Positions 863 through 63,969 of a stretch of 64,000 nt of DNA are shown here, piece by piece. Source of the stretch: Phallusia mammillata (Eukaryota); contig OZ281497.1 of the NCBI GenBank assembly GCA_965637545.1, positions 27,094,001 through 27,158,000 of the forward strand. The letters are read 5' to 3'. Position numbers and translations under genes: made by a program. The notes beneath the pieces are model-generated. The model was given only the letters and a program-made list of their open reading frames with translations, was not told the origin of the DNA and made no database searches. Each line of letters begins with the position of its first letter. Position 1 is the first letter of the stretch.

Positions 863-3800
863 GAACGCCTTGCCTATTGTTGGGAGTTCAATATATGCAG
901 GTCTGGATTTTGAAACCCTGCAACCAAAATCGTCTGATTTTCCAATTCTAACACTCAATGGAAATGAGGAAAGTTTATGGAACACATCAAGGTAACTCAA
1001 ATACCAACTGCTTCTTTCTTTCAGGTTTTGAACATACTTCAGTGTGTCAAATTAGACGTTGCTTTTACAACTGAATCATCTGCTCCATGCAAACTTGTAG
1101 GCAGTGTGATTGCTCTTTGGTGAATATAGTTGGTGTTAGAAAAAAGTAAACTTACTCTTATAAGAAAGTTTTCTTAGTTTAAAGGCATTTGATATTTAAT
1201 TGAAAAAAATGTTAAAAATTGTATTTTTTTCCATATTTCCCTTTGTTTTTACCTAGAGGTCAGTGTCAATTATGCTCTAGCACAGTTCGGAAACATGCTT
1301 GATTTAACGATTTAACTCAGCATGCGTAAAAATATAATTACTGACAATGTTGCAACTTTTGTAGTGTGCCAATCAAAGATGTTGGCGTATACAACATAGA
1401 AATCAAAATAACCGCAAAAATCGGTTACCATGGCGAAATCGCAGTCGATGACGTCATGCTGGTGGACGGCGACTGTTTTGACCATCAAAGCAACAAGGAC
1501 GGTAAGTGACGTCATCATACCCATGATGTCACATACTTTTCCTCAATATTTAAATTCTATTACAGAAAACAATGAGGAACGTGGTGAGATCAAATGCAAC
1601 TTCGACTTGCAGTCTTTCTGTGGGTGGAAGCAAGATCAGGTGACCGACGATTTTGACTGGCAACTTAACAGCGCCACCACGCGACAACGTCAAGTAGCGT
1701 TTCTCCTCACCGGACCAGAAGGCGACCACACCACCAACAGTTGAGTTTGGTGTCTGTTTGTTTTAATTTTAAAACACATTATCATCTCAAATGAATCCTG
1801 CCAAAACTTACATTCGGCGTTTGTGCCTTTTTGCCTACAGTGCGTAAGCTTTTGTGATCTTTCTCGAGGCACACGTGTTGATTGAGATACGCTCCGTTTC
1901 GCAAGTTGATTGCTTTTAGGGCTGCACTGTGGTGTTAGTCGTGTCAATATGTTCTGGAAGTGCTATTGAATGCACGTTTGGTGCAGTTTGTGTTTACCAC
2001 GAAAAGTTTTGTATAAGCTTCACCAGGCAGTTTATACGCAGCCGAGACTATCTCTAATACACATGTTTGAAGTATATGCATTTAAGTTCAAATACTCTCA
2101 TATGCACTTAAGACTGTGCTTTTACAGAAATCGTCCTGAACCAACGTGCGCTCAATACAGATGATTCAAGTTGCGGATAATCATAACTTAGTAAACTGAA
2201 GCTTTCAGTACACCTAAATCAATCCGTGTTTTTCGTATTGTAAATAAATAATATCGATTTCGCCGATTTAATGGCATCCTCAGTTCTAAGCAAGAAAAAT
2301 TAAGTTATTTAGGCAATAAAAGATGTAATAATAATAATAATAAAAGACTGTGGCAACGACAACACACTTCTCGACAACTAAATCAAACGTTAAAACGGAT
2401 ACAACATAACGACATTTCTTGCTTAGAACTGAGGATGCCATTATATCGGCGAAATCGATATTATTTATTTACAATACATTGCAACACGAAAAACACGGAT
2501 TGATTTAGGTGTACTGAAAGCTTCAGTTTACTAAGTTATATGCACTTAAGGTTATACAAAAACGGGCTTGAAAGCTGTTTGCTTCTATTTGTTTTGATTT
2601 TAAGTGTTGCATCTTTGTTTTAGACAGTTATTACGCTTACATCCCGTCCAACGAGCAAGTTCAGGGTGATGTAGCACGACTAACAAGCCCTGGCGTCCAT
2701 CTTGCTTTCAACCTCGATTACTGCTTCACATTTTGGCATCATATTCGGGGTTACAACACTGGCAATTTGACGGTGTCGACAGAGGACCAAATATCGGTAT
2801 GCACATTTTTTACATAAGCAGGCATAAATGACACATATAAACGAGAAAGCAATTTTACAGTATGATTTCGCCTATTAAACCATGTTGACGCTAACTTTAC
2901 ATTTCACCACATACAGTATTTAAAACCAGGTTAGGTCACTTTACTTAACTTTTATTTAGTAGCTTTCCGTTCGCTTGTCTAGCAATTTTCTGAACAATTA
3001 AAACCATTACACATTTTTGAAGAGTTGGCTCTTAACGTGTCCATTTTATTGAACGTTTACTTTTTGTAGGGAAAACGGACCAAACTATGGACAAAATCAG
3101 TTTTGACGTATGATGACTTAGCAGATTGGGAGATAACGTATCTCGATGTATCGCCTCCGTCATTCAGCGATAGTTTATCTATGTTTACTACATTGCGTTT
3201 CGTTATTGAAGCAAACGTCATCAGCTATTATGGAGATATTGCCATTGATGACATCATGTTCCACAATGTGTCCTGTCAGTTTGTCAAATCCGGTAAGAAA
3301 AGGGTAAAGTCACATTTACCTTATTTAGCATTTTATGTTATTCATGTATATTGTATGACTTGTTTTGGAGTGCGATTTTTCCAGCTTACTGTGTGACCAG
3401 TTAACGCATGCTAATATGCGTTTTTTGTTTGCTTTGTCCGGACACTTTAAGGAGTTTGCTTGTGTGGGAGCAATGCCCTAAATTGTTACTTAATTGAAAA
3501 TACATCTGGTTTATTTTTAATAATAACAACAAATACAATATAGTATTGTAGCACTTCATAGACCTAATTGACCATTACAGACATTAAAGTTCATTAAAGA
3601 GCAAACATTTGCTATTAAATTTAACAATCACAATCATCAATTTAGGTCTTCCATCAAAAAACGACAGAGTCAAGTATCCAGCTTTGCAACAGAATAACAT
3701 TCCAACAAAGCCACCCTTACTCTACTCCATACCGCCCCCGAGTGGAGATGTGGAAAGTCGGTTTCACACCTCGGTTGCATATAAAGGTACCGAATCCACA

Positions 3801-7007: not shown

Positions 7008-10000
7008 TCAGTTTTGTCTGACTTGGTTTTGTGATGACTTTCCGATGCCATTCTGTGAAACCTGTGGGCGTGAATTGTTTAGTTGGAAGGAATTTCCTAT
7101 TGAACTGCGATTCCAGGCTTGAATGACTGCATTGCGGACTTCGTGATTAAGTGGAATGTAAACCAGAAACAGGAAAAATCCTTGAAGTCCAACAGTTATC
7201 ACGTACCAGTATAAAAATCCATGGGATGTAACTAAAAACATAACGAGAAAATTTTATCGCTGTTACAGAATAGGAATCTTTAAGTTTTGTGAAAAACGTT
7301 GATGAATTCAATATAATGAATTGAAAAAATTCAATATAACTTCTGAAATTCTACGGTTAGTGGATGAATGTTATTGTGATGTATTTTTTACTACGTAATT
7401 GAAAAAGTAAATTGTTTGTACGGCAGACTGTAAAAAATACCTTTACCCCAAAAAGCCCAATGAAAATTGTTAACTTATAAAACACTACTAGTTCAAGTAA
7501 AAAAGGCATCAAAAATGTAGGTCAAGTTTTAGAAATACCTAAAATGAAACAATGAAACTAGAACAGACCATGACAATACATTACCAGCCAATGTAAACAA
7601 TTGTAACATCCTACTTAAGCTTTTTATCACCTTTTACCATTCAAAACACACACATTAATTTTGCGGAACACTCACAATATTGTAACCAAGAAAAATCGAG
7701 CAAGCCTTACTTTGCATAAGACTAAGACACCATGGAATCCCAAGGGCTGGAAGAAGCATCAGCATTGCTCGAAACGCCGCCTGTGCGTGTGTCAAGTTTG
7801 CCTGCATCAAGTTGTCGTTGCTGACATCTCTGTCGGCCGCTGCCTTAAACTTGTCCCGTTTCTTGCTCATCTTGAACACGAACACACCCGCTCTTATTAG
7901 AATGATGAGGTTGGCCAGGAGGACCAGAGCAACGGGAAGAATCAAGCTGAGAATTTGGACCACCGATCCGGGAGTCATCCAACATTTGGAGAAACGTCCC
8001 AGCTGCGGGTAGGACCCAGCAACGATACCCGGTGTCTTGTCCATGTAGGAGTCCGTTGTAAACCCGACCGAGGTTGCTATGGTAACTACAACTGCAGGGA
8101 CGCCCCACCCGAGGACGAGTTTCGTGATCCGCTCGTTACGTGTGTTTTCAGCTCGCAGTCTGTTGCCGAACGTGTGCTTCGCCAGCGTGATTCCTTCCAG
8201 TAACATCCAAGCGGCTACGAAAAACAGTTGGTTAGTCAGATTTTTTTAGAATCAGATTCTTTACTCGAATGTTAAACAGAATTTTTTTCGTTTGTTGCTT
8301 AAGAAGCGAAAAGGGTGTCTCGATAGTACTGTCAAAGCTGTATGTAAGTAAGGGCGGTTGGGGCTTGGCTGTGGCTTAAACTAGAATGAAATATACCTGT
8401 TTTGGGGCCTAAATTTATACTCCGCCACAGTTCCTTGGCAAATTTAAGTTTTAGAAGAAATTTGGTTCGGTTCGGGTTTCGGGCCCACTTAGAGGAACAA
8501 AACCTTAAACAAGGGACTTAAACTTCTTGTAACATTCACTTCTTTGCAGAGATAGCTAATATCACAATTAATATTCTGATGTTGCAACGCATTTATTTGT
8601 TCTGTTCATTGTGAAAAAATTGTAACGTTTATTCTGTGCGTTGAAAACAAAATAAAATTGAAATTGAATTGATGTTCATCAGCTAGCATTCGTCGCAAGG
8701 GGTCAGCAAAACATCAGGTGCCTTACGGACAAGTCAAAAAAGTCAATTTTGTTTGGTTACGTTGAAACGTTAAGTCTAGTACACGGGTTCCCAAACTTTT
8801 TTGGACTGTGGCCCAAATGTCTAGTAAATTGCGATTCGTGGCCCACCCAGTGCTGTAAATTTCGGCACAAACAAAAACATAACTCAAAAACAGGCGAAAT
8901 GGTTTCTAGCAATTTATTTTCAATGAGATACATGCTCCTGAAATTTGGCTACAAGATTCGGAATTCTTTGCAAAAATTACGTTTTTCAAAACAAAGCGCA
9001 TAATATCTACAGTATAACAAAACAGTAGAATCTATTCAAATGGCTCTGTGGCCCATTGAAAATGTCGTGGTGGCCTAGTACTGGGCCATGGCCCACAGTT
9101 TGGGAACCACTGGTCTAGTATATAGGATTAACTAGCTGACTTGTAAATTTGGTATTTTTAACAGGTCAAAGTAGGCCGTCTCATGGACAAAAACAGACAG
9201 CGTTGCATTCTGTATGCCAGCTAGCGCAATCAAGGTAGTTTAACAGTTAATCTGAAACCTGTAGACGTAAATATCCACGAAATAAACGGACAAGCATTCA
9301 AACGTAGGCATGTCTGATGTTAAAGCTTACCAGATGAAAGAAGAAAATAATGTGTAATGACAGCGACCGCCTGACAAGCTGACGCATTCAGACGCGCCAC
9401 GTCACTCAACAAAATGAAGATATGGAAGAAGATGAGCGATATGGTGAGGTTTATCTGCACAACGGTTCGTTTCGACCTCAGTCTTTTCCGCACTTTCAGT
9501 AATACCAGAAATGTGCCTACGAGTGAAACGAGTGATATTGCTCCGACCACGTACGACAGGATCTGTAAACGAACAGGGTTGCTTCTTGAAGTTAGGCTTC
9601 GTTAGCGACAGAAACAGTAGTGTTATTGAAAGAAGATACGATATATAGTATGACCTATTGTTGGATTGTGTCATTGCCTTAATGCTTAGGCAGTTTTAAC
9701 CTGTTTGATTTTTATTTTACCCCATTTATTGGGCAAATATACACCTCATACATCATTTGTAAAGACAATTAATCAATTCAAAGGGATCCGTAAAGATACA
9801 ATACAAGTCTGTAAACCTAATGTAGGGACGTTTGCAATCGAGTATCAAAATACAATTTATTAGCTTAATGTGGCTTTCAAAAAGAAAAAAAATGCTCAAC
9901 ATTTGTTTCATTTTCATTTTACAGTAAGAAACAGTAGCAGTGAAAGAGATTACTTTTTGGTTGATTTTAGCAGAAAATGGAACTTGTTTAGTTCTGTCGA

Positions 10001-13000
10001 TTTACCTTGACTCGAGGTGGTATTGTGAAAGTCGTGAGTGACATGAGAGATGCAAATATTGTTGTGTGGTTCGACACACAGTAATATTCTGGTGACGAGC
10101 TGTTCACTGATGTCACACCAAATGTCGAGAATCTGTGAAAAACATCATCTTAGTAATAGTTTTAGTCAATATATAGGTGAATGCCATATTTGTCTAAGTT
10201 TAATTGCAACGCCGCAAAAATAAACAACAAATATATATTTGAATCAAGTGGAATATCTAAATTATTTTCTTAGCTTTGGCGCAAATCTGTGTGCGTTGTC
10301 GGTAACAAATTGTGTTGATTATTTTTTGTGGTGCAGCAAGTGACCGCTATATAGGCAGCGGATACAAATTAGATGTGTGTTTTTTCTTTGATGTATTGTA
10401 TTTAAGCTTAATTCAATGTTCATATGTCCAAATCGTCTTTCTTTGTGTCAAGTTATTTAAATCATCTCAAAATCATGCGTCAAAGGTAAATTAAGCAAAA
10501 ATTGGTCATTCTAACTACCAAAGCAAAGGAAAACAAATCAAGTTGATTGACTGTTTAAATTGAGGCGATTTACTGTTTAAATATAGAGATTGATTTTTAT
10601 GATAATTGGTTTTAAATAATTGACTGACAATTTTTAACAAATTTATTTTCACACTACAATAAAATAGGACAATATCGAAACATAATCTTTATTCACAGTA
10701 CGCCAAACCCATTGAAGGCGCCACACCGTATATGCTTGGTGACCGGCTGATTCGGTATTGCGCCTTCAATGGGCCTGGCGTATACTGTGATTTGCAGATG
10801 AGTGTGCCGTGATCGCTGGTCTGCAAAAACGCTTCAAGACTGATCCCAGTTATAAATTTATGTTCATCTTAGAATCTTTATTATTATATTTTTCCAACTT
10901 TAACAACTTACTTCCCGGTTTCGAGATCCAAGTAAACGCATTTCATCGCTGCACCTATGATCCCGACGTCATCAAGTGACGCAGCAGCGGGAAATGACGT
11001 CACATCGGTGAGATTGGCCAAAGAGCAGTTGATTGGAATCGTGTAGTTTACAGGCGTTGATTCTTGTGTAAAAATATTCAGCAATGAAAGCAGTGGAATC
11101 TCTATACTTAGAAGCTGATCGTAATTTTGCGGCCAAACCGGCTGATTAAGATATTTTTTCATCTCGTTTAATGTTGGCTTTGACGATGAAATTTTCGCTG
11201 TAACGTCATCCTCGATTCCCAGCACATTTGCACAGCTTGCGTTGCTCAGTGCTTGAGACGCAAAAAGACCTGAAACAGAGTTCAATTAGTTTCTGTAGCG
11301 TGTGTAAGCTTATATATCCATTTTTGCTTGGATCAATAAAATGTTAAATTTGTACGACATTTGATTTTTCGTTCGATTTTCTGTAAATGTTACAATTAAC
11401 GCCCAATTTTAAAAAAGTAGTCATATTCGGAATATTGCTTATTTTCCAGACCCAAGTGACTTTTTGAGTTTAAACAAAACTGCTAAAGAAAAAATTTGCA
11501 CAAACGGTTTTGTTGAAAATCTGGGTGCACATATCCCTCAGTTACACGATAAATTTAGTTATCCATTCAGAAGGTAAAAAAATGCATCCTTTCAGAAGGT
11601 TAATAAAAAAATGCATTGTTTGCAACGTGGTGAAGACGTAAAAAGGAAACAGTAGTGTTGCGGCAAACGCCCAAACCCATCAGTGATCTGTTCGCAGTTG
11701 TCATCTGTGAGCATAGTAGTATTCCCAGCTTTGACTTACTTTTCTTGCAGCTTTCCAAAATAGTCATTAGAACGGTTTTAACGTCTTCCGTGAGGTTTTC
11801 GTACGTCGACAAAACAACCCTCTCTTTAGAAACACCTCCATTTGCACTCTCACTCAGCTGCTTTTTGTCCACCTTTGCACCAATTCCAATCGCATACACA
11901 GATACATTGTGGGCAGAGGATATTTTATAACTGTAAAATAAATAAATAGATTTCAAATATTGGTACACCATTTCATCGACGTTTAGGACCTATGATAGGA
12001 TTGGTTGTTCCATTACTAGCCCGTCTTATGCTTTGACCCAACAAATTTTAAGTTTAATTTTTGTTGAATGTGAGTGTATCCTGTTCGGTATTGTTGGTTT
12101 GCATAAGTTCCTTCTAAACTTGCCAGAAACGGACAAGTACTCTAAATGCCATTCAGAATTTGCCAGTTGCACTTAAAAGAAATGCGTGTTGTATGTTGAA
12201 TCCTATCTCGTTATTTATTGTACTTCACCTTTCCAGCAAATTGTAATCGTCGGTAGCCAATCCGTCGGTGAAAAGTATAAGATGCTTTAAAGAGACATTC
12301 GCATTTACAGACTCGGCAAAATCAACCTGCATTAAAACACAACTTGTGATGATCGTTATTTGGATTTACAACACAGCTCTCTCGCATCTTCTCTTCTGTG
12401 AGGAATTAACTTTTTGTAACATCAAGCACTAATGAAGGCGACCTGTATAGGACGTCGAAACGTCGGAATTAAAATACATTTGCCAGAAGAGCTCTATAAA
12501 CCTGATCAAGCACTTAAATTCGTTATTTATTTGTTATTTTCAGTCCTACTTTTTACCTACAATGCATTGCGATTTTTAAAACAGATCAACCGAATTATAA
12601 ACTAGCTTCACTGAAATAAAATATCTCAGATAGCTTAGGGTTGCCATACGTCAGGATTTTCCCTGACATGTCCGGGAATTTAGTGTCTGCGTCAGGGAGA
12701 AATGTTAAAATGTATTTAAAAGTCAGGAATTTAAGAAAAAATATAGCTATACTAGCACTTAGCTACAACCGCGTCTATACCATGAAACGTAAAGAGGTAA
12801 ACTTGCGGCGGGCAGGTTAACGCACAAGGTTACTGTTTCGTTTTGCAGTGTGTGTGCGCGCGTAACAATACCTGTTTGTTACTAGTTGTCTAACAATACG
12901 CGTTAAATACAGAAATAAAAATCCGCGTCTCAAGAAAACACAGCGTTCGATGCTACGTGGGAACGTGGGAAGTTTCATTTGCTACAAGGAATTAACTGAC

Positions 13001-22170: not shown

Positions 22171-25100
22171 ATGCGTGCAACCATGGCCGAAAACCAACCT
22201 GAAAACGAATGTTCTAATTCGACTGTTTCGCTAAATCTACAAGACCGACCCCAGCCCAACTTGACACAAGAATTGGCTGTTGTTGGAACCCCAACCAGAC
22301 TGCCCCAGGAATCTGAAGAAATCAAGGCACAACACTCCGGTGACGACGTTGTCCCCTTACCCCCACAATATGGTGAAGTTATACCACAACAATCAAGAGA
22401 TGTTTTGCCACAACCACATTCTGCTCAAATGTATCCAGTCAATAACGAAACTGCAGTGATAAACATGGTAAGAAATTCGGACCAAATTCAGTTGTTGGTT
22501 TAAAAATGTTTCGTGCTTTGCAGGAGAGCGTAGAAGCGCCACAGTTTGGAGACACAATCACCCACATAGCTGGATCAATGTACAACGCACCAGTAGAACT
22601 TCATCAACACAACTATTATACCCTTGTTCAGCAACGGCAAACAGTTCACTTAACAAAAGAACAACCCCACACGTCAACACAACCACCTGCACCAGTTGCT
22701 TGGAAGGAAGAAACTTCGCCAAACATCTTTGATGAAACCCCGCCCACATCATATCAACCACAAACTTGCCACAACCAGCCGACTTCATCACTCAACACGG
22801 AACCAGAAAACCTCCGTGCTAGTGCAACACATCCTAGGAAAGCAATAAACCAATCTACATCCGCCCAGTCTTCTGCAAGTCAACATCAAAAAGCAACACA
22901 AGCCACGGGAAATAAAATATGTAAGAGCATTTTTTGTTTGTTTATTTAAAAAAAATCTACTTAAAATTGCCACTCAATATTATTGCCTGGTGTATACCGG
23001 CGTGATGCGATTTGTGTTTCACATAGGTTTTCTTGTTTAGGTGAACAACTGAAGTCTCGACTAAAGAGAGAAGTCAAAGCCACTGCCAGTGAAGAATCGA
23101 CACTAGCTGAGTTTTTGGACCGAGCTATAGAACCCGTCCCCGTTGCCATAATCAACAAACCCAAAAAAATTAGCGACGAGTTTCAAGCAGAAGGACATTA
23201 TCACTACAAAAAGGAACTTTACAAAACACCAAAAAGTGACATAACCGGTAATGAAATTTTCGTTTGCGCAAAACAAACTGCACAACAAGAGGCGGAGAAG
23301 AAGTTCAAAGCGCATAAAATGGAAGCAAAACAAAACTACATCGAAAAACATGGGAATATAGTTGGTGTGGTTGGTCAAGCTGGAATAGGAAAAACTACAT
23401 CAGCAAAAATGTGGGCCCTGCAAGCATTAGAAGGACAGTTGGGTGGAAGAGTATCGTTTATCTTTTACATTGTGATCAGGTTTCTTCAGTTCAACGGTGA
23501 GATGACACTTCTTCAGTTTCTCATTTCCACCCTGTTGTCGGATTGGATCTGCACACCTGATGAGGCAACCATTATTCTCGCTGCCATTTGCAATGATCCT
23601 CATGTTTTGATCATTTTCGATGGTTTTGATGAGGCAGCATTTAAATCATTTTCCAGCTTGGTATCGAAACCACTATTACACGGAAAAAATTCTGCAGAAA
23701 GTTACCTAAAGCATTTAGCAGGAGGAAACTTGCTTCCACGAGCTCGAAAGATTTTCACATCACGACCAGCTCAGCTATACAAGCTCCATCCGTCATACCG
23801 ACCCAAGTTTATAGTTCAGATACTTGGTTTAACTCCAACATCACAGAATGAACTCGGACGTCAGATATGTGGAATCAAATATGATGCTATACACCAAAAA
23901 CTTGTCCGAAACCCTAATGTATTTGCATACTGTTATGTTCCTGTCAATTTCATATTGACACTGAATTACCTGATGAATTACGATGGAGATATTCAGTTTG
24001 TTTCGCTTACACGTGTTCTTGCTTTCACTTGTAGCCAATACGTCACAACAGATCATCTGCAGGGCCAAGAATGCGAGTTAGACAAACTGGCCAAAATGGC
24101 TTGGGATGCATTTCTTGAGGGCAGGTTGGTATTTAAAGACAAGAACTTTAAAAATGCTGGAATAAGACCTTCCACAGCCGAAGCATTCCTTACCACATCA
24201 GTAACGAAGCAAGTAAGTCTCAAGCTGACGATATTAGATGGACACAAAGTAAGATACTTTTCTCACCTCACCTGGCAGGAGTTTTTTGCCGCCTTCTATC
24301 TGATGATGATCATGCCTTTAAAGGAATTTAAAAAGCAGCTTAAACAACTTAGCAAAGACAGATGGGAAGTAGTTTCCAAATTTGTTTTCGGAATCTGCGA
24401 TTCTTGGGTTTTCAATAGTCTTGAAAACCTTGTCGGTGCAAGTTCCAGCAAAGAATGGTCACTCAAGAAGGTCTTGCTAACCGAATTATTGACTGAAATG
24501 AGCACAGCAAACATAATGCGAGTGTGTAGCTGGGCTCATGAGTCAAATGACATTACCTCATCTGTTGCTTCACTACTTCCTGATGAGCTCGACCTCAGTC
24601 GTTTATCTCTCCTTCCAGATGACATCGAAAACCTTTCCTACGTGCTTCAACACAGAGCCTGCCCGGTAGGCCTATTACTGCGTTTAGGATTTGCTGCGAT
24701 TTTGCTTCCAGGACCATGTTATGCTAAGGAAAATGTAAAATCTTTGCGACATAACTAAATTTAGTGAAATATGTATGACAAAGTGGTTGATTCAAATAGC
24801 AAAACTAGTTTAGTAGTTTTCCATCGTGCTTCAACTCAGAGCTAACCCGATATTGATGTGGTTTAATTTGCGTTTAAAAAGGCATTTGCCAATGGTGGCA
24901 GTATATATAATTATTCGTTACATTGTTACGTAACACAATCACATATGACGTCACCAGCACCTGTGTTACGCTTTCAAACCTTGTGATGCTCTAGTTCAGT
25001 AATCAACGGGGGCGTTTGCTCTCACTAAGGGGGCGCTGAAGAATAATTGGGCGATTGGGGGGCGTTGGGAAAAGTTTGCGATTGGGGGTCGACCTATGAG

Positions 25101-28100
25101 CATAAAAGATGCGCATGTAAATTTTGACTTATGATACTGCGTTTTATTTAAATAATGCGTGTTGCCTAAGAGAATGTCAGCTATGGTTTGTTTACCACGT
25201 TGCAAATAATTTGAAAGATAAATGGAAGAACCGATTGCAAAGGTCAGGATTGGCCACTCTGATATTGTGTGGTGTTTTTATGTCTGCTGTGTTATGTGTT
25301 AACATGTTCTTGTTTTTAATTTAATCATCAGCTGGAGACACTCGACCTCTCCTACAACAAGATCGGTGATCTGGGTGCAACTTCGTTGGCTCGTTGTCTT
25401 CACAAAATCGAAATGCTTGTGCTGCGACGATGCGACGTCGGAAGTGAAGGAGTCAGACAACTCTGCGATTCTGTACTGCAACTGAAAATGCCTGTAAGTA
25501 AATTACGGTATCCTTTTTACTTAAACAATATCAAAAAGATTTTGGTAACCATGTTGCGTGATTACGTGTATCAAAATATCTTTATTACATGCTGGATACG
25601 CATTTAGTGTTTTATTTTTTTTACCGGAGTGCTATTTGTATGTTTAGGATTGATACAAACAAATGTTTTATTACTTCGGATTTGTTTGTTAAGTTAATGT
25701 TTTCCGACATTTCACTCTAAATTCTTAAATGAAAAAAACAATATCATCTATTTAGTCCTTGTCTGGATGCAGCGTTTGCTGGGATCGATTGTGTATTAAC
25801 CACTGGGGAGGCGCATACTTTTTGGTCTTGACATCTATAAGCCAAGAAAGGTTGGGTAACAGTACTGTAACCCAGCAATCAGATTATTTAAAACCTTTGC
25901 TTTTTGAGTTGTAGTGCAATAACGCGACACAAATGTTTATTATGGGTCCCCTGCCCTGAAGGGGACACATATTGTTTTTGTCCGTATTTTTTTTTCTTTT
26001 TTTATGTTTTTTTTTCTTTTTTCCGTCTAACGCGGATTTGTTCCCACGTTTTGGTCAAGAAAGAATGGTTCAAACTTTTTCAAATTTACACACATTACTG
26101 ATATTGGTCTAAAGATGGTCCATGTGAATTTTAACCCCGTTTGATCCCTCGGTTCACCCACAGCCCCCCAAAACGTAAATGTGTATAACGCTCGTTTGGT
26201 CAAGAAAGACACTGTAGGCAGAAGTACCAAGGGAGTAACTCACTGGTTTACGATAGCGGGAGGGCTCAGCTTGACGTCGGACAGACGTTTTACGAGACGT
26301 CGTTTCGGTGATTAGAAATCAGCTGTTTTGCACAGCAATGCCATGTCGTTTTATTAAGTTATCACTCACATTTTTGGTTTTGGCGAAGGTTTCACACCTA
26401 TGACGTGATTTAAACGTAATAACCGTGCTTCGGTTTTGTATATGTCAAGCAAAACTTTGTTAATCAAAGTAAACATGAAAAAATGAATTTGACTTTTTTG
26501 CAAAACAAATGTTTTTTTAAATGCTCGTTGTCAGGTTGGCCGCCGCATGATTACGGGTTACTTAAGGTCAACTAGTAGGTATTACAAACACTGTTCAGAA
26601 CTTTCTTTCGTCATAAGGTAGCGGTTTTTTTTTGACAATCAATTTAGGAGTCAATGCTCAAGGCATGTAAAAATTAGGCTTAACGGTATTGTTGAACACT
26701 CAGGACGGCGTGCTATTGAAAACGGTGTCAAAAGGTCGAACAGTCGTTTGGCGTGTGCACCCTGAGAGGTTACTACAAGTCAATGGTACTCGTTTTGCGA
26801 AACAAAGTTAAATGAAAAACAATTTGTTATGTATAAACTTGTAGCAAATTGCTTTTTAATTTAAAGTGTCTGTAACACAACTGTTACAGCTTTCTAAAAA
26901 AATTGTGTTCAAAACCCGACCTTGGACTACAATATCTGGGTCAAAGCAAGAGATTAAATTAAAGTCTTTGTTAATTCAGTGCTTCGCAATCTTATACGGA
27001 CTGCATACCACTTGACAACTTTCTCTTTCGCTGTGTACCACCTATCATAAACCCTGTTTGAATTGATAGACCAAAAATAGGCCGATTTTCTCTCCCTAGA
27101 AAAGAGCGGTCAATCAGCGAATGACCACAAGGCTGCCAACGCATTTCGTGCAATACGAGAGTGTCGTTCTTTGCCAAATGTTTACTTTTTTTTGTAATCA
27201 CGATCTGCTGTGCAACCCCCAGGTGTGAAAACACAGTAATATACAAAAAACTTAATCGGGGATGTATTTTGTGTACTTGTTTTCAGTATTTAACATGTTT
27301 GTTGCATGGTTTTCAACTTAAATTATTTGTATGTAACACACAATATCTCAAACGAGTTTAACACCAACAGTACAATACACAAAATAGAACCGGTAAACAA
27401 AGTCTTCACTAGATGGGGTGGTTTAAATCAAAGTGTCATGCGGTTTGGAAATAAAAATCTTTGCAGAAAAAGTCCCCAAAACAGCTATAAAAAAGAACAA
27501 TTTGAACTGTTGTTTTTTGTCTCTTTTATTCCGTTTCTATGGCCGTAAGTCTCACAGGACTTGTTCCAAATTGTGGCCCATTCGGACCAGCAGCAACTAC
27601 GTTACTTTTGGCGAAAACAATAATTACATGCAACAACTTTATACTAGTATTCGTTAAGGCATCGATTATAACTACACATTTACAAAACTGCTTAAAACCA
27701 GACACCGGCAACACCTAACCAAATAAACCAAAAGTTCCTTCTTGCGTGGAGGTCCGCTTAAACGCTTTTGTGCCTTCGATCGAAGGAACAAAGCGGAAAC
27801 GTCGAGTCGGACCAACGGCCATGGAAATGGAATATGTTTTAGCTGTGTCGCTATAAAAAGTAAAAATGTAAACAATGCACGCTGGTTGCATTGGGTGTGC
27901 GAAAAGGTACGGTCCTTCCTTATCTACTTATGCATTCAAGCGCTTGCTTTAGGTGTGTTGTGACATGAATATTTTTTTGCGCATAGTGCTCCCTAGCGTC
28001 CGTCGAGACATTAAAATTAACCTAACAAACTTCACGTTGATGATTTTTCAAGGTTGCTTTGTTGCTAATTATTATTTTGCTTTAACATCAGCTGAAGAGA

Positions 28101-29179
28101 CTTGATCTTTCCGGCAACAAGATCAGTAATGCAGGTGCATCTTCTTCAGTGGCTCGTTGCCTTCACAACGTCGAACGGATGGTGCTGATAGACTGTAAGA
28201 TCGGAAGTGAAGGACTAAGACTACTCTGCGATTCTGTACTGCAACTTAATAAACCTGTAAGAATCTTTGATTCCTGCACGTTAAAAATTCCAAGGAAAAT
28301 TTGGTTTGCTATTTTACGGGATTACCTGGGTCAGAATACTTTTGTTTGATATGGGAAACGCATAAAGCGTTTTAGTTTTTGTCCTTATTAAATTTTTTTA
28401 GGAAATTTGTTTCTTTGATAACAACAGCACAAAACTCTTTTGCAATTTTGGTTTACTAAATGACATTCAGTGTCGTAGTTGGTTTTGTCTTTATTCGCTG
28501 TCTTGGTCACAATTTCGCCACTTACAAATTATAATCAGCTACAATGATACCAGCATAATGCATTTCACATCCACACGAATAAGCCCGGGGTCGCATTTCG
28601 CGAAGTGCGGAAGTGCAGCCCACCTATAACTACATTCATATAGCTCAGGCTGTAATGAAGTTTAAACGCAATATTGTACACATCAAATCAATTAAACATA
28701 AATAATACTACACTCAAAACAGACGAGGTCAACAAAATATCCAACAACAAACATGGAGGATTAAATCATGCTGACACGTGGGCACGCAAACATAACAATA
28801 ACTAAACGATAACTCCCTGTCCCTTGTTTTGTTCTGTCATGTCACGACAAAAATAATACCTATCTTAGTTGTAATACTGAATAAAATGCGTTTTTGTGTG
28901 TGTTGATGACACGTCGCTGTTAGCAATTACTTGATTAAATGACATCATATATTTTGAGTCTGTTCCTGTAACAATGCATCAATTGATTGAATTCACTTAG
29001 CAGTTTTTTTTTAGATGGAAGTTCTTGATCTGTCTTACAACAACCTGACAGATAAAAGTGCTGAGTCATTGGCTCAATGTGTTCACAACATCAACGTTTT
29101 GTGTGTATGGGATAGCAACTTCACAACAGCAGGAAAAAATCTCATCAGATCAAGGTCGCAAGGAAAAGTTGTGTTCTAG
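22171..29179 (+). CDS. NLR-1: RHIM-like N-terminus - NACHT - LRR, ~936 aa
   Basis: Exons 22171-22467, 22524-22920, 23041-24665 (Walker A GQAGIGKTT, Walker B LIIFDGFDE, TSRP sensor, FSHLTWQEFFAA winged helix), LRR cassettes 25332-25493 and 28092-28256, terminal LRR exon 29015-29179 (TAG). Phases are consistent, total 2811 nt. Confidence 0.9.
25936..26245 (+). mobile_element. DINE-1/HINE (non-autonomous Helentron)-like repeat
   Basis: Begins tttattatgg, has a short hairpin GTCCCC-n9-GGGGAC, a T/TC-rich microsatellite-like tract, then ccgtctaacgc. Related copies at about 36130-36400, 63355-63500 and (diverged) 21660-21890. Family assignment rests on architecture only. Confidence 0.5.
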
Positions 29180-36129: not shown

Positions 36130-36400
36130 TTGGACACATATTCTTTTTGTCCGTATTTTTCTTTTTTTTTTCGTTACCTTTTTATATTTTCTTTTTTCTT
36201 TTCTTTTTCTATTTCTCTTTTCTCTGTCTAACGCTGGTTTGTAAGAGTGCTTTAAATTTGGACACAAGTTTGTTATTAATCGGAATTCGATACTCCTGAA
36301 GTTTGACTCCAAATGACCCAGCGGTTCACCCACAGGCCCGAAAATCATTCACCCACAGGAAAACTTTTTTAAACGCTGGTTTGTAACCCCCGTTTGTTCA
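36130..36400 (+). mobile_element. DINE-1/HINE-like repeat copy upstream of NLR-2
   Basis: ggacacatatt...tttttgtccgtatttt, a TC-rich tract and ctgtctaacgc, homologous to 25960-26200. Confidence 0.5.
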
Positions 36401-37105
36401 ACAAATTTGTCGTTCAACTGGTGCAATGCTAAACAAAATACTAGTTGTTGTTTCAAAAACTTGTATTTGCTAACGTTTCGCCCACCAGAACGACAGGGCT
36501 TTATCAGAGCAATGAATGATGTATTGCGAGCAACAAGCGAGAAAGCGCAAGAACAGCGGGATACGATGAAAATTAATTACACAATAACAAACGACATCCG
36601 AAATGATCCAAAAAAACGGGCTAAGGTTTTGCCGTCGTTGCGATTAAGAGCATTCGAATTGGAATTTATAAAGCAATTTATAAGGCAACGGTTCGTTATG
36701 CCTGTTTGTACTGCCTCAGCGTCGGGTGGTTGCTATGTTTACGAAATAGGCGCGGTCACATCGTGAACCACTTAAACCGATTTTTATCTGTTTCAAAGGT
36801 AGCCGGGTAAATAGATTTAGTGCTTGAGTAGCGACTTCTCCCTTACACTTTGGGATTTTATTTGGCCCACAGCACACCACTGTACAATTTAATTAGTTTT
36901 TGTACCTCCAACTCTACACTTGCTACAAGCTGTTGGTGTTGTCCAATATTGGTTTGCAATAAAACAACGCGACTGAGCTTTCGATATAGCACACTGTCCT
37001 ATAATTAAATACAACTCATGCCACCTAAATGTTTAATTTCATTTGTTAATGTAAATAATTGAATCTTGTTTACAACATACAGGTTTTATCAAGTTTGATA
37101 ATTTT

Positions 37106-40100
37106 ATGCCAGTAAGCATGTCAGAAAACATGGAAAACCAACCTCGAAATGAAAGTTCTTATCCCACTGTTGCCCAAACTGTCCGTCACCGACCAAACAC
37201 GACACAAGAATCGGGTGACCGTGAACTTCACACAAGACTGCCTCAAGGTTTCCAACAATCTGGTGAAGTTGTCCCACGAACCGAACAATCAAGAGATGTT
37301 GTACCCCAAACTCATCCAGCTCGATTAATTCCAGTCGATTATGAGAACAAAGTTATAAATATTGTAGGTAATAAGAGCGACAGAGTTTGTGTAGTTGTTA
37401 ATCATTTGTATGTTTTTCAGGATAAAGCAGATGCTCCACGGTTTGGTGACACAATCACCCACATCCACACCACCGGACCAGTGCACAACGCACCAGTTGA
37501 ACTTCATCAACACAACTATTATACCCTGATTCAGCAACAACAAACGGTTCAGCATATACATGAACAACCTCACACTTCAACACAATCATCTGCACCAGTT
37601 GCTTTGGAGGAAGAAACCTCGCCAAAATCATTTAATGAAACCCCGCCCACATCCCATCAACCACATACATGTCGCAGCCATTCGAATTTATCTCTGAATG
37701 CAGAACCAGAAACCCTAGGTCATACGGCATCACAACCTAGGACAGCGACAGGCCAATCTACAGCATCTCACGCTTTGCCAAATGAAAACCAGCAAACAAC
37801 ACAAGTAACCGAAAATAAAAAATGTGAGGACAGGTTTTGTTTGGTAGTAGTTGTTTGGTAATACAAAATTTGTAAATATACCACTAATTAAAATACCGTA
37901 ATTAAACTGGTGCGTTTTACAGAATTAGTGTTTTACAGAATGTATCTTGTTTAGGTGAACAACTGAAATCTCTACTAAAGAGAGAAGTCCAAGCCATCGC
38001 CAGTAAAGAATCGACACTAGCTGAGATTTTAGACCAAGCTATAGAACCCGTCCCCGTTGCCATGGTTAACAAACCACAACAAATTGGCGACGAGTTTCTA
38101 GCAGAAGGACATTACCATCGCAGAGATGAACTTTACAAAAGACCAGAAAGTGACATCACCAGTGAGGAATTGTTCCCTCGTGCAAAACAGAATGCGCAAC
38201 AAGAGGCGGAGAAGAAGTTCAAAGCACATAAAATGGAAGCAAAAGAAAACTACATCGAACAACATGGTAATATAGTTGGTGTGGTTGGACAAGCTGGAAT
38301 AGGAAAAACCACATCAGCAAAAAAGTGGGCCCTACAAGCATTAGATGGACAATTGTGTGGAAGAGTATCATTCTTCTTTTACATTGCCATCAGGCTTCTT
38401 AAATTTAAAGGTGAAATGACACTACTTCAGTTTCTGATTTCCACCATGTTATGGGATTGGGACTGCACACCTGATGAGGCAACCAGTATACTTGCGGCTA
38501 TTTGCATTGACCCTCATGTTTTGATCATTTTCGATGGTTTAGATGAGGCTGCTTTCAAATCATTTTCTAATTCGGTTTCAAAACCCATATTAAATGGAGT
38601 AAATTCTGCAGAATGTTACTTGAAGAATTTGGCGGGAGGAAACTTACTTCCACGTGCTCGAAAAATTTTTACATCACGACCAGCTCTACTATACAAGCTC
38701 CATCCATCATACCGACCGAAGTTTATCGTCCAGATACTTGGTTTAACTCCAACGTCACAGAATAAACTCGGACGTCAGCTATGTGGCGAAAAATATAATG
38801 ACATACATCATAAACTGACCCAAAATCCTAATGTCTTTGGATACTGTTATGTTCCTGTCAATTTCATATTGACACTGAATTACCTGGTGAATTACGATGG
38901 AGATATTCAGTTTGTTTCGCTCACACGAGTTTTTGCTTTTACTTGCAGCCAATACGTAACAACAGATCATCTGAAGGGCCAAGAATGCGAATTGGACAAG
39001 CTAGCCAAAATGGCTTGGGATGCATTTCTGAAAGGCAAATTGGTATTTAAAGAAAAGAACTTTAAAAAAGCAGGAATAAAACCTTCCACAGCCGACGCCT
39101 TTCTCGCCACATCAGTAACAAAGCAAGTCAATCTCAAGCTGACGATATTAGACGGACACAAACTGAGATACTTTTCTCATCTCACCTGGCAGGAGTTTTT
39201 TGCCGCCTTCTACATGATGGTGATCATGCCCTTTAAGGAATTTCAGATGCAACAGAAACAACTAACCGAGGACAAATGGGAAGTTGTTTCAAAGTTTGTT
39301 TTTGGAATCTGCGATTCTTGGGTTTTTAATAGTCTTGAAATCCTGGTCGATGCAAGTTCTACTGAAGATTGGTCACGCAAGAAGTCCTGGCTGACCGAAC
39401 TCTTGAATAAAATGAGCACAACAAACATGAAGCGAGTGTGGAGCTGGGCTCATGAGATGAATGATCGAGAAATTGTGTCGTCTATTGCTTCTCTACTACC
39501 TGATGTGCTCGACCTCAGTGGTTCATCTCTATTTCCTGACGACGTTGAAAACCTTTCCTTCGTGCTTCAACACAGAGCCAACCCGGTATCACTGTGGTTT
39601 AAATTCCGATTTTTTCCAAAAAGCATGTGCTACTTTTAACCAAAATGTCAACAACTGCCATCGTCAGTAAATGGCATTAAAAAAATAAAACTACTTAGTA
39701 CTTTGGCATGTGGTTAATATGATTCTCATGCTTTATTTTAAAGAGAAGGTCAAGTTATTTTGTGTGTAATGCAAGACCTTATGGACAGATTATGTTGGCA
39801 TTAAGACACAAAATATATTGCCATTAGTAATAAAATAAGTCTGCTTCGAGACATCAAAACAGACAAAAGATTCACTACATTCGAATGGTTTTATTGACTT
39901 TAAGATATGAGTTCCATAAAGTAACCTGTTTAACAAATATTGGTCTTCCAGCAGATTTTTATTTAAGAATAAATTTCGACGTCGCATGCAAGTTTACTGA
40001 TGATAACTCTTCACTGCTCACATAATTATAAAACAACATATGCGACATAACTTTGTATATAACATTACAAAACTCTTGTTCGAAGTTTGCGTAAAATAGC

Positions 40101-58782: not shown

Positions 58783-61700
58783 ATGGCAGAAAACAAGCTT
58801 GGAATCGAAACATCTAATTCGTCTGTTTTACCAAATTTACAAGATCGACCCCAGCCCAACGCAATAAAATGATTGGGGGATGTTCCAACCCTAACTAGAC
58901 TGACCCAGGGGTCTGGAGAAATCGAATCACAACACTCCGGTGACGTTGTCCCCTTACCCCCACAATATGGGGAAGTTGTAACCCAATGTGGATCACGCCA
59001 ACAATCAAGAGATGTTGTGCCACAACCACAATCTGCTCAAATGTCTCCTGTCAATAACGAAAACGCAGTGATAAACATGGTAAGAAATTAGGGCCGAATA
59101 TTCAGTTGTTACTGTAATTATATTTCGTGTTTTGCAGGAGAGAGTTGAATCGCCGCAGTTCGGAGACACAATCATCAACACAACTGGACCAGTGTACAAC
59201 GCACCGGTAGAACTTCATCACCACAGCTATTATACCCTTGTTCAACAACAGCAAACGGTTCAACAAATGTACGAACGTCAATCACATACTTGCCGCAACC
59301 AGAAGGCTTCATCACTAGATACAGAACCAGGAATCGTTCGTCCTGCTACAACACAACCAGGGACAGAAGCAAGTCAATCTGCAGCAGCCCAGTCTTCAGA
59401 AAGTCAACATCAGCAAACAATTAAAGCCACTGCGAATAAAAAATGTGGGGACAGGTTTGATAGGTTTAATAATGTGGAATTCAAACCAGATTTCGTGTTA
59501 ACATTGTTCAACTGCTAGTAATAAACACAGATTGTTTTCGTTTAGGTGAACAACTGAAGTTATTGCTACAGGAAGAGGTCAAAGCCGCTGCCAGTGAAGA
59601 ATCGTCGCTGGTAGATTTTTCAGACCGACCTATACCAACCGTCCAAGTTGCCTTATCCAGCAAGCCACAGCAAATTGACGACGAGTTTCTAGCAGAAGGG
59701 CATTATCACCGCAAAGACGAACTTTACAAAAGACCAGACAGTGACATTACCGGTGAAGAAATGTTTACTCTTTCAAAACAAACAGCAGAAAACGAAGCCG
59801 AGAAAATGTTTAAATCACATGAAAGGAAAGCTAAAAATAACTACATCGAAAAACATGGAAATGTAGTCGGTGTGGTTGGACAAGCTGGAATAGGAAAAAC
59901 AACCTCAGCAAAAAAGTGGGCCCTGCAAGCGGTAGATGGACAATTGTGTGGAAGAGTATCGTTTGTCTTTTACATTGTGACCAGACTCATTAACTTCACA
60001 GCGAAGATGACACTACTTCAGTTTCTCATTTCCAGCTTGTTATCCGAATGGAACTGCACAGCTGATGAGGCGACCATTATTCTTGCTGCCATATGCGGGG
60101 ATCCAGCCGTTTTAATCATTGTGGATGGTTTAGATGAAGCAGCTTTCAAATCATTTTCCAGTTCAGTTTCCAAACCTCTGATACATGGAAAAAATACTGC
60201 AGAAAGTTACTTGAAACATTTAGCCGGGGGAAACTTACTTCAACATGCTCGGAAGATTTTTACATCACGTCCAGCTCAATTATACAAGCTCCATCCTTCA
60301 TACCGGCCCAAGTTTGTAGTTCAGATACTTGGTTTAACATCAGCATCACAGAATGAACTCGGACGTCAGATATGTGGAAACAAATATGATGTCATACAGC
60401 AAAAACTTGTCCAAAAGTCTAATGTATTTGCATACTGTTATGTACCTGTCAATTTCATATTGACAATTAATTACCTGGTGAATTACGATGGAGATATTCA
60501 GTTTGTTTCACTCACACGAGTTCTAGCGTTTACTTGTAGCCAATACGTAACAACCCCTCACCTGCATGGCCAAGAATGCGATTTGGACAAACTGGCCAAA
60601 ATGGCCTGGGATGCATTTCTTGAGGGCAAATTGGTGTTTAAAGACAAAGAGTTTAGAAAAGCTAAAATCGAATCTGCTACAGCCGACGCCTTTCTCACCA
60701 CGTCAGTTACGAAACAAGTAAGTCTCAAGCTGACGATATTAGACGGACACAAACTAAGATACTTTTCTCATCTCACCTGGCAGGAGTTTTTTGCCGCTTT
60801 TTACATGATGATGGTCATGCCAGTAAAGGAATTTCGAAAGCAACTGAAACAACTAACCGAGGACAAATGGGAAGTTGTTTCCAAGTTTGTTTTTGGAATT
60901 TGTGATTCTTGGGTTTTTAAACAACTTGAAACCCTTGTCTCTGCGCCCTCGAGGGAAGATTGGTCGCTCAAAAAGTTCTGGATGGTCGAATTTCTTACTG
61001 CGAACATGAACCCAAAGAAGTCTTGGCTGAATAAATTCTTCAACTCCGGAAAGAAATTTAGCGAAAAGAATCTTTTGAAAGTTTGTAGCTGGATTCATGA
61101 AATGAATGATCGAGAAATGGCCTCGTCTGTTGCTTTCCTACTTCCTAATAAGCTGGACCTTCGTAATTCATCTCTCTTTCCTGACGACGTCGAAAACCTT
61201 TCCTTCGTGCTTCAGCACATAGCCATCCCGGTATTACTGTGGTTTAAATTTCGCTACCGATGTTGTTATTAGGGCGATGTAAAAGATTTTATTAAAATTA
61301 ATGTCTAGTTGATTAGGCCTATATGTTCTTTTTTTGTTTTGTTTTTTTTGCTGTCATCTCGGCCTGTTATAGTTTTAACTAGTATGCAACACCTGCCTTC
61401 GTCTGGCAATGAAATTGATGGTATTTTATAAAGCGAAATTACGTAGTACTTTGACATGTGGTTAAAACGATCAAGCTCTATACTAATCACCAAACGCAGT
61501 AGTAGGTAAAGTTTTTTGTGTGTAATGCATGACCTTATTAACAGTTTAATCAGGGGTGGGGAACCTGCGCCCGCTTGCTTTTTTAATGTAGCCAGACACA
61601 ATTTTGTTAAAGTAAAGTATACAACAAAGCATATGAACAATAAAATGAAAAATAAATCGACATTACTGGTAATCTCCCCATTCCACATTGTGACGCCAAA

Positions 61701-63969
61701 CTTCTAGAATTTGCTACAAATTCAACCTGCACTTGATATATTTGTGACGCAACAGCCACTCGATTGCCTCTTCTTGACAAGTAACAAATCTTTTGCCATT
61801 TGGTGTTAGTTTAAAATTATGTTTAGAGCTATTAGCGTGCATTCTTATATTGTTATTTAAATTATTTTGTCGCAAAAAAAGATAAATCGGCATAATGGGT
61901 CTCGGGTGTTCTATGAACAATGGACAAACTCCTATTTTTAGTCGAAATAAGTGACAAACCTATATGCCTTATCGTGTAAAAGTCAGAACTGGTCACAGTG
62001 GCATTTGTGGTTCGTTTTATGTCTGCTTAGTTGTATGTTAACGTATGTTTGTTTTACTTTAAACATCAGCTGAAGAGACTCAATCTCTCCTTTAACAATG
62101 TTGGTGATCTGTGTGCAAATTCGTTGACTAGTTGTCTTCACAACATCGAAATGCTTGTCCTGCAAGGATGCGACATGGGAAGCGAAGGAGTAAGACAACT
62201 CTGCGATTCTGTACTGCACTTTAACAAACCTGTAAGTAGTTTAACCTTTGTACGTAAACGTACGTGAGTACATATATATAAGCTATTGCTGCTGGGCATA
62301 ATATCAAGTTTTTAGAGCTTTTCTAGCAAATGTAATTTTATTCCGACGTTTCTACGTCCTATACAGGTCGTCTTCATCAGGGTAAATAACACTGAATGCG
62401 ACTAGTACAGTACACGAAAAACAAAGGAAAAAAAATGGAACGCCAGCACGTCACAGCGCGATAACGAATGATTGGGCCTCTAATCTTTAAGCAAGTGCCG
62501 GTAGCACGCTGAAAGCATCACGTCTGTTTTGATGTTCATTGTGTTGCCCCGTTGGTGAATGTTTCTTTTCTCACGAAATAGTATTTTCTTGTAGTCAGGC
62601 TACCGAGCCAAAACAGACGCCGCATTGAAATCAATACGGCAGCCTTGTGATACCGCGTGATTGGAAAGGGCCGACTTCTTCGCTTTGCTGTTTGCAACAT
62701 CCCGCTGATGTTCTTTTCGGCGGGTAGGCGCAGAGAATATAATATACAACGCCTCGTTGTTCAAAGGTATTGATTGGATCTTTCGGGTGACTAGAAAGAG
62801 CTTGCGGAGACTATTGGCAGATTGGACGCCAACCGCTATGCCGAAGTCACGCAACATACGCTGTAAAATATCCGTCAGTTTCGGTATGTACGGAAGTGTC
62901 ACAAAACCCTCTGTTTTTGGATGGGTCGCCGGATTGGGCAAGTTGCCCGTCGACCGCGGAGAATCCAGTTGCGGTAGCCGTTAAATTTCAAGGCTTTGTG
63001 AACCTTGTCAGTTCCTCCTCGCAGTCGTCGCTATGAGTGCACAAGTGTCGTGCCTGATCTTATAGAGAACGAACCACCCCCCTTTTCTGGTGTGTGGGTT
63101 GGTGAGATCGAAAATTGAGATACATGTCGGTACTCGTTAGCTTGTAGTACACTATTGAGTACAAGACACCGGCGTTGGTTCTTGTGCTTTCTGTTTTTCG
63201 TTTGTTTGTCGTGCACTGCACTCGGCCGCATTCAGTGTTATTTACCCTGATAAAGACGACCTGTATAGGGCGTCGAAACATCGGAACAAAATTACATTTG
63301 CCAGAAGAGCTCTCCAAACTTGGTACGTGAATATGTACGTCATATATAATACTTTTATTATGGGTCCCGTTCCCCTTTTTTCTCAGTTAAAGTTTGTCCA
63401 TGTACTTTTGTCATGAGATCTTAGGTGGATTTGGATGAAACTGGATTGGAGTTTTTAGCTGAATACTTACTTGATTAAAAGGCAGGCTCAGTATGAAGTG
63501 CCTGTGTGAATTACATAATTTGCTTTTGCATCTGCATTGCTTTCAAAAACCTGACTAAGAATCGCAAAAACGCAATTTCGCAACAAAAATGTAAGAACCC
63601 AAGCGTTACTGTGATGCTACTATGTCATCATTTCTAACACTTGCCTTAGAACTTAGGTAAATTTTTAAGCGCTGCACAAATGCAAAAGCAAGAATCTTTA
63701 CGAATCGGGAAAATCAAAGTCCGTATTTACCTTGCAAACGTCACATTGGTGATTTTTCATGATTGCTTCGACACGAATTAACATGTGATATTTTGCTTTA
63801 ACATCAGCTGAAGAGCCTCGACCTCTCATGCAACAAGATCGGTGATCTGGGTGCAGCATCATTGGCTCGTTGCGTTCACAATATTGAAATGCTTGAGCTA
63901 CATGGATGTGCGATCGGAAACCATGGAGTGAGGCAACTCTGTAATTCTGTAGTTCAACTGGAAAAACCT
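58783..63969 (+). CDS. NLR-3 (3' end beyond the window): NACHT-LRR paralog with an in-frame TGA at codon 30; null allele or re-initiated form
   Basis: Exons 58783-59079 (TGA at 58870-58872, in-frame ATG at 59041), 59138-59444, 59546-61230 (GQAGIGKTT, LIIVDGLDE), LRR cassettes 62070-62231 and 63808-63969. No other disabling lesion was seen. Confidence 0.8.
62281..63323 (-). mobile_element. 5'-truncated Penelope-like retroelement with terminal repeats in inverted orientation, each carrying a hammerhead-like motif
   Basis: Minus-strand frameshifted coding remnant at about 63150-62590: YKLTSTDMYLNFRSHQPTHQKRGVVRSL..EEEL..KALKFNGY (RT C-terminal region), FVTLPYIP.., KEHQRDV..SALSNHA..IDF..VLAR (GIY-YIG remnant). 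Terminal repeat with CTGATGA..GAAACGTC on the minus strand at 62343-62382, and an inverted copy on the plus strand at 63245-63284. Confidence 0.85.

Follow-up and report, generated by a model that had tools for sequence, protein, structure and literature searches.

A stretch of 64,000 nucleotides of Phallusia mammillata DNA (hereafter the window) holds three tandem plus-strand NACHT-LRR receptor genes of this species, NLR1, NLR2 and NLR3. They belong to an NLR family of about 90 genes that has no death fold and bears a short, conserved motif of strand type that is assembled by splicing. The motif is under purifying selection and, judged from its sequence, the chances are about even that it is a tandem-duplicated, divergent head of cRHIM type that would signal by amyloid-type stacking.

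In their available text, two papers state that tunicates lack RHIMs (PMC4262963; PMC12119088), and the second of them reports finding no tunicate RIPK1 homolog that bears a RHIM; ascidian NLRs have been described, in the accessible part of the source, as having no N-terminal effector domain (PMC11508797). Taken together, these statements make NLR signalling in the closest invertebrate relatives of vertebrates a standing question, and the Phallusia heads conflict with both of them as they stand in the text available. No account of the motif in ascidians was found in the literature searched (subscription journals and most supplements lay outside it, and figure alignments could matter).

Gene structure, splicing and the N-terminal head

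Coding exon 1 of NLR1 (22183..22467, + strand), which is covered by RNA-like contigs, encodes a low-complexity head ending in the first motif strand, A-V-I-N-M (22453-22467). The motif is split here by a phase 0 intron of 56 nt (22468..22523, +), with a GT..AG join in run X3 and a position that is constant across the family. Exon 2 (22524..22920, +) encodes the motif body (22524-22619), with the P-Q-F-G-D core at 22539-22553 and a second pseudo-repeat after it, and then a P/T/S/Q linker. The NACHT-WH-HD2 exon (23041..24665, +) has contig joins at both ends and matches Pfam NACHT with 67 bits against a cut-off of 26.7; the NOD2_WH and NLRC4_HD2 matches are weak and below cut-off. The LRR exons (25332-25493, 28092-28256 and from 29015, spanning at least 25332..29101, +) were placed by contig joins and tblastn, their identity as LRRs coming from sequence reading and tblastn and not from Pfam.

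The NLR1 intron is crossed by a single X3 contig, which joins 22466 to 22523 without mismatches at a depth of 3.5, and a paralog contig in run X4 has the same motif splice. The join between exon 2 and the NACHT exon is present in three of four RNA-like runs, and contigs also carry the joins from NACHT into the LRRs (24664-25331, 25493-28092 and 28256-29015); the runs behind these contigs were called RNA-like by guess, none being recorded as RNA. The nearest named relative is Phallusia mammillata COS1.5, with 64% identity over the NACHT exon. The protein of the COS1.5 cDNA, P0001, is 100% identical to one paralog in the Phallusia genome, and its comparison with the genome places the motif-splitting splice in that sister paralog as well (a 52-nt gap, at 100% identity). 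Assembly of the motif by splicing, as proposed in the first-pass annotation, is therefore borne out by the X3 contig, by P0001 and by the X4 contig of the paralog.

Exons 1 and 2 of NLR2 (37118..37823, +) encode the motif as K-V-I-N-I and a P-R-F-G-D core, split by a phase 0 GT..AG intron of 57 nt (37364-37420, +) that is itself in frame and stop-free. The gene is free of stops from its ATG through the first LRR exon; its NACHT exon (37955..39585, +) is 80% identical to that of NLR1 and its LRR exons lie at ~40982, 42030, 44130, 46945 and 49295 (+). In NLR3 the motif is encoded by exons 1 and 2 (58783..59444, +), with a phase 0 GT..AG intron of 58 nt (59080-59137, +), and is followed by a NACHT exon that is 73% identical to NLR1 (59546..61257, +, 3' end approximate) and by LRR exons at ~62075 and ~63810 (+). 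An in-frame TGA stands upstream of the motif at 58870-58872, the next in-frame ATG being at 59041, and NLR3 is either a broken gene or one that starts at the later ATG. The three motifs first quoted for these genes were all recovered in their frames.

Some further features of the locus may be recorded. An intron through the motif of 57 or 60 nt that is in frame and stop-free occurs at 37364-37420 of the window and at no fewer than nine other family loci, and one contig carries the motif intron of a paralog unspliced; retention of such an intron would add 19-20 residues inside the motif and could serve as an off switch. High-copy repeats, with contig depths of hundreds to thousands, lie within and between the NLR genes (window 25,900-26,950 and 36,200-36,600), and an NLR3 intron contains what we take to be the 3' endonuclease end of a retroelement (62,600-62,980, -). 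The neighbouring genes, labelled from their translations, presumably encode MAM-like exons (1,400-3,400, +) and an adhesion-GPCR-like protein with vWA-like and seven-helix exons (7,650-12,000, -).

No death-fold domain (CARD, PYD or DD) was matched by Pfam in any of four N-terminal pieces, the N-terminus of NLR1 consists of 49% Q/P/T/S/E and 6% Leu, and in the AlphaFold model of P0001, a weak one with a mean pLDDT of 46, residues 1-194 are coil. These observations agree with the earlier claim that no such domain precedes the NACHT exon. The accompanying description of a conserved island inside divergent N-termini holds for the island but not wholly for the divergence, the heads being paralogous and alignable within a subfamily (57% identity). 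In its second half, the motif of NLR1 deviates from the family, with IAGSMYN in place of TTGPVYN. One subfamily (L076-L079, L055, L142) has a head that starts with M-G, is built of 12-residue Q/G/P/D tandem repeats, shares one exon with NACHT and retains only part of the motif.

Conservation of the motif and its relation to RHIMs

Searching the genome with exon 2 gave 72 motif places and two patterns gave five more; all 77 are NLR genes or NLR remnants, and no free carrier of the proline form was found among them. The family was defined as the 88 NACHT matches with at least 55% identity, among 150 NACHT matches listed, and 68 of these 88 exons have a motif place no more than 2.6 kb upstream. 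The remaining 20 comprise five with the first half only, four in the kinase cluster, four with variant or short motifs, one with a displaced and cut motif, five in which no motif was seen and one that was not inspected. At nine motif places no NACHT was listed; these belong to NLR genes that are broken or deleted and to derivatives of such genes. A metagenome scan gave four loci, and one of the three that were read has a motif-like exon.

In 51 distinct spliced copies the consensus reads V-[IF]-N-[ILM], five variable residues and P-[QH]-[FI]-G-D-T for the first half, and [IN]-[IT]-H-T-T-G-P-V-[YF]-N-A-P-V for the second, which is conserved as well as the first; five genes are without the second half and one subfamily is without the first. 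The motif averages 2.8 prolines, conserved at 98%, 80% and 98%, and its mean strand propensity, at 1.05, is scarcely higher than that of the flank (0.98), which weighs against a strand-type stack. Over 47 loci, which were picked by the motif and whose copies are not independent, dN/dS is 0.25, 0.16 and 0.17 in the motif against 0.51, 0.52 and 0.31 in the flank, with NACHT at 0.22-0.28. Between the subfamilies with F and with I, identity is 79% in the motif, 60% in NACHT and 24% in the flank. Synonymous changes are fewer in the motif too, with divergences of 0.14-0.43 against 0.37-0.73, and homogenisation at the DNA level may therefore contribute to its conservation.

The motif had been proposed to follow the layout of a RHIM, and in register with RIPK3 (V450, I452, core V458-D462) much of this layout is present in the 48 copies compared. 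The upstream h-x-h stands five residues from the core in every copy, positions -11, -9 and -1 are hydrophobic and the following G and D are fixed in 48/48, and position -2 is Q or H in 46; in RIPK3 numbering this corresponds to hydrophobic residues at 450, 452 and 460, then G and D, with Q or H at 459. The core opens with proline in all 48, and its third position is F in 35 and I in 13. Set against the VxxG core of cRHIMs, the family has the glycine in 48/48 and the valine in none. The first-pass annotation likened the motif to the cRHIM of Drosophila PGRP-LC, given there as an FGD core with GPV after it. In the available text on cRHIMs, the fourth-position glycine is the sole invariant core residue (PMC10268257), whereas the canonical RHIM is defined by a (V/I)-Q-(V/I/L/C)-G core (PMC13506858); VQFG and LQIG are natural functional RIPK3 cores in vertebrates (PMC12119088).

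Profile searches gave no similarity to Pfam RHIM (PF12721), either in short queries or above cut-off in the genome. None of five short queries matched, HMMER filters being prone to drop weak short matches, and a genome scan, from which the motif intron hides the motif, gave four matches with E-values of 2.9-9.6, all below cut-off. These four were rejected as chance, none lying in a coding motif. A sequence search of the PDB with the motif returned no match, the ESM Atlas gave no usable feature match and structure matches with TM<0.5, and a search of a protein database with the motif region of NLR2, weak enough to miss P0001, gave seven candidates, none with E<=10. The proposed layout thus stands for three of the four aliphatic positions and for Q, G and D but lacks a profile match, and by the tests run on its sequence the motif falls outside the canonical RHIM family. 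The proline at core position 1, first recorded as atypical, is indeed so, but it is more than a small oddity because it is fixed where proline abolishes RIPK1 and RIPK3 nucleation: in the accessible text of a deep mutational scan, prolines in the RHIM all lower nucleation, and RIPK1 I539P and mouse RIPK3 V448P lose both nucleation and killing (bioRxiv 10.64898/2026.02.19.706818).

Kindred short motifs occur in distant NLR clades of the same genome, whose NACHT is ~28-43% identical to that of the window family. Of 26 distant NLR loci that were read, 11 have a short 5' exon of the type h-x-h-G-[DE]-h-H, such as VHI-x5-VIIGDVH or HI-x5-LHIGDVH, and three further short-form motifs were found by other routes. 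Among 20 distant motifs, 17 begin their core with V, L or I. Three of the 20 have a VHIG core, and PHFG and PHIG cores exist within the window family; according to the available parts of the sources, VHIG is the cRHIM core that was tested in shrimp Imd, and both PGRP-LE and Imd of Aedes are reported to carry it (PMC10268257; PMC9531809; PMC9387487). With a matrix built from 13 distant motifs, the window family excluded, both halves of the window motif rank among the best-scoring 0.04% of 1.19 million windows, the G-D register with P of 1-4 x 10^-4 per window and the T-T-G-P-V half with a best P of 3 x 10^-5. The matrix recovers held-out NLR exons, and in leave-one-out runs three of the 13 training motifs were weak or failed. 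A profile comparison of the window family with the distant motifs (hhalign) gave a weak match, with a probability of 17% and an E-value of 0.0014, equalled by one of 100 shuffles. The distant motifs were chosen by eye and anchored on glycine, which together with the weak profile match makes common descent of the two forms likely but unproven; the match of the matrix to both halves suggests that the window motif is a tandem duplicate of an ancestral short unit. In a quick tree of 59 NACHT pieces, the proline cores are confined to the expanded clade (SH-aLRT 93).

In other ascidians, Ciona NLRs find their best matches in the Phallusia genome in the window family, and four of them have ~25 residues before near-identical NACHT domains, in four different strand-like versions. 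One Clavelina NLR begins with a segment that contains CQVG.

Candidate partners in the genome

The first-pass annotation had called for partner proteins with the same motif. No motif was found on free RIPK-like kinases, and outside the NLRs it was met only in a ZU5 protein and in genes derived from NLR-kinase fusions. Over 41 stretches of free RIPK-like kinases, the best window scored 14.0 against a training minimum of 18.2 and lay outside any kinase exon, and the 21 closest of 150 database kinases reached 6.2 at most. A faintly similar stretch in one Clavelina kinase scored 4.9, and a pattern derived from it had no match in the Phallusia genome. The pattern h-H-h-G-D-h-[HYN] gave 21 matches against 10 in the control, four of them known and 17 without coding context. 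RIPK-like kinases have at least 150 matches in the genome, and their large clusters on C2 (0.7-4.3 Mb) overlap an NLR cluster at C2:1.6-2.4 Mb.

No effector gene adjacent to the NLRs was found in the 64-kb window, and 180 kb of one sub-cluster, in a cluster of 7 Mb, held kinase fusions. The sub-cluster at C4:24.68-24.85 Mb (L117-L134) contains a RIPK-like kinase module on the 3' side of five NACHT genes, one of which has four LRR exons. The module also lies 3' of two GTPase genes, which from their sequence we take to be atlastin/GBP-like exons, and in one case of a motif exon alone. Two sister genes that are nested in the subfamily of the window and have a decayed motif are predicted, from their splice phases, to encode NACHT-kinase fusions in frame. 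Such decay is expected if the fused kinase replaces recruitment; it counts as one event, and two kinase-linked genes with a broken NACHT retain the motif. A reading of all four heads of the kinase cluster as decayed was rejected, two of them (LRIG and VHIG cores) being better read as short-form motifs. Likewise, the motif-plus-kinase gene at C4:24,768,385 was discarded as a partner once it was recognised as a derivative of the NLR-kinase fusions from which NACHT has been deleted; its first strand is absent and it reads through only via an alternative acceptor. At C4:24,797,900-24,803,300 (+, L086), a motif exon is followed by a mostly deleted NACHT, one LRR exon and a kinase with weak Ribonuc_2-5A matches below cut-off (IRE1/RNase L-like), this stretch being one gene or two.

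The short-form pattern gave eight matches against two in the control, namely six NLR exons, one non-coding match and one exon of a ZU5-containing gene on C5. This last exon scores 30.7, like the NLR motifs, which is partly so by construction, and shares its phase with a downstream row of ~30-residue micro-exons rich in G/N/S/T/H. The predicted multi-motif ZU5 protein is the best lead to a partner class, and it fits the short, putatively ancestral form better than the proline form.

The surrounding region, C5:21.876-21.976 Mb (L186, L189-L192, L221-L225, L234), consists of tandem units in which symmetric phase-1 micro-exons are lined up in rows, every micro-exon encoding a G/N/S/T/H-rich amyloid-like motif of 27-32 residues, before a final Cys-rich exon. 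One of the units also includes the short-form motif exon and, upstream, ZU5 exons (Pfam 21.1 bits). TRADD-N-like exons were rejected as part of the ZU5 gene, as each runs into a stop and they seem to be single-exon genes in their own right. Such genes occur at 22 places (L193-L214) among the micro-exon units, mainly at C5:21.88-21.96 Mb and C4:2.61-2.65 Mb, and encode a hydrophobic segment and a TRADD-N-like domain (Atlas lead 0.89-0.90; TRADD-like_N on 18-56% of some clusters).

Possible modes of signalling and known systems

If the motif is an amyloid-type head, ligand sensing by the LRRs would drive oligomerisation of NACHT, as in other NLRs, and oligomerisation would crowd the disordered heads. 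The pseudo-repeats V-I-N-I-x5-P-Q-F-G-D and I-H-T-T-G-P-V-Y-N-A-P-V-E-L-H could then stack and the stack might template a partner with a kindred motif; because of the core proline, the fold or register of such a stack must differ from that of RIPK1/3.

The fixed prolines (98%, 80%, 98%) would equally suit a short linear docking site in a disordered head, which forms no polymer but contributes a strand to a folded partner (an adaptor, kinase or ubiquitin ligase), its prolines and glycines shaping turns. A same-motif partner was not found, in keeping with such a site, and the motif decay in the kinase-fused pair fits any recruiting role. However, a single folded partner should constrain the sequence more tightly, and the motifs of distant NLRs vary but keep an alternating hydrophobic/His-Gln pattern round one glycine, as amyloid motifs do; docking seems to us rather unlikely. 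We give less credence still to a reading in which the ancestral head was a cRHIM-type amyloid and the proline form is a brake or a sensor-only head that caps fibrils or cannot seed them, its receptors acting as sensors or inhibitors for helper NLRs with V/L/I cores. Such helpers are present in the same genome, the proline is confined to the expanded clade and blocks RHIM nucleation, and Pirk is a known RHIM-like inhibitor; yet a brake would be costly if repeated in ~70 genes with diversified LRRs, and the second repeat is as conserved as the first.

It is improbable that the motif is kept by nucleic-acid constraint (short-intron splice signals, or gene conversion within a tandem array of recent origin) or persists as a relic in receptors that signal by NACHT alone or as pairs. 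The lower synonymous divergence, the many near-identical recent copies, the broken genes and the five members without a motif would fit, but dN/dS in the motif is as low as in NACHT, its identity across subfamilies (79%) exceeds that of NACHT (60%), and similar peptides recur in NLR clades of ~30% identity and in Ciona. Least probable of all is that the head is a tripwire, in which cleavage or modification of a conserved site by a host or pathogen enzyme switches the receptor on. NLRP1 is a receptor of this type, and a conserved site set in a P/T/S/Q head that is long and disordered has the appropriate shape; sites of this kind tend to diversify when the enzyme is a pathogen's, whereas no part of the head is more conserved than the motif.

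A 40-residue peptide, being open to direct test, offers a way into ascidian NLR signalling. If fibrils form, NLR amyloid signalling, so far shown in fungi and bacteria, would reach a chordate gene family, and the question raised in the available text of a review, whether the RHIM is the sole metazoan signalling amyloid (PMC7889193), would be answered. The rule derived from RIPK1/RIPK3 mutagenesis would also be broken if a proline-led core were functional. A wider extension, that tunicate NLR immunity is a fungus-like network of amyloid heads, with numerous families of motifs on the NLRs, read by adaptors with ZU5 and micro-exon strings, and that the 90-gene family has a new two-repeat amyloid fold containing proline and insulated from the ancestral motif, is in our view doubtful.

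Among known systems, the mammalian RHIM (RIPK1, RIPK3, TRIF, ZBP1; PF12721) shares with the motif the h-x-h-x5-x-Q-h-G-D register and disordered flanks, and differs from it in that the Phallusia motif has proline at core position 1, no pre-core glycine and no Pfam match. The arthropod cRHIMs of PGRP-LC/LE, Imd and shrimp SRB2 likewise have a loose core in which only the glycine is fixed, but their carriers are PGRP receptors and adaptors, their partners are known and their fibrils have been obtained experimentally, and no proline-led core appears in the available parts of the sources (PMC10268257; PMC9531809; PMC9387487). In the fungal NWD2/HET-S and PP and the bacterial BASS systems, as far as the accessible text describes them, a head of 20-30 residues also precedes NACHT, two pseudo-repeats are found, and 'all-in-one' fusions of receptor and effector exist alongside stand-alone receptors; there, however, the two repeats are on the effector, whose gene is adjacent (bioRxiv 2020.01.06.895854; PMC7889193; PMC7885112), whereas in Phallusia the repeats are on the receptor, the sensor is an LRR and no adjacent effector was found. 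Closest in layout are the amphioxus RHIM-NACHT proteins (e.g. BF82280), animal NACHT proteins with a short RHIM-type motif at the place of the death fold, which match the RHIM profile where the Phallusia motif does not (Kajava et al. 2014, PMC4262963, in the text available). As this layout is already in print, the Phallusia family is not categorically new, and by analogy its heads would most likely work like those of NWD2 and BASS and of the amphioxus RHIM-NACHT proteins.
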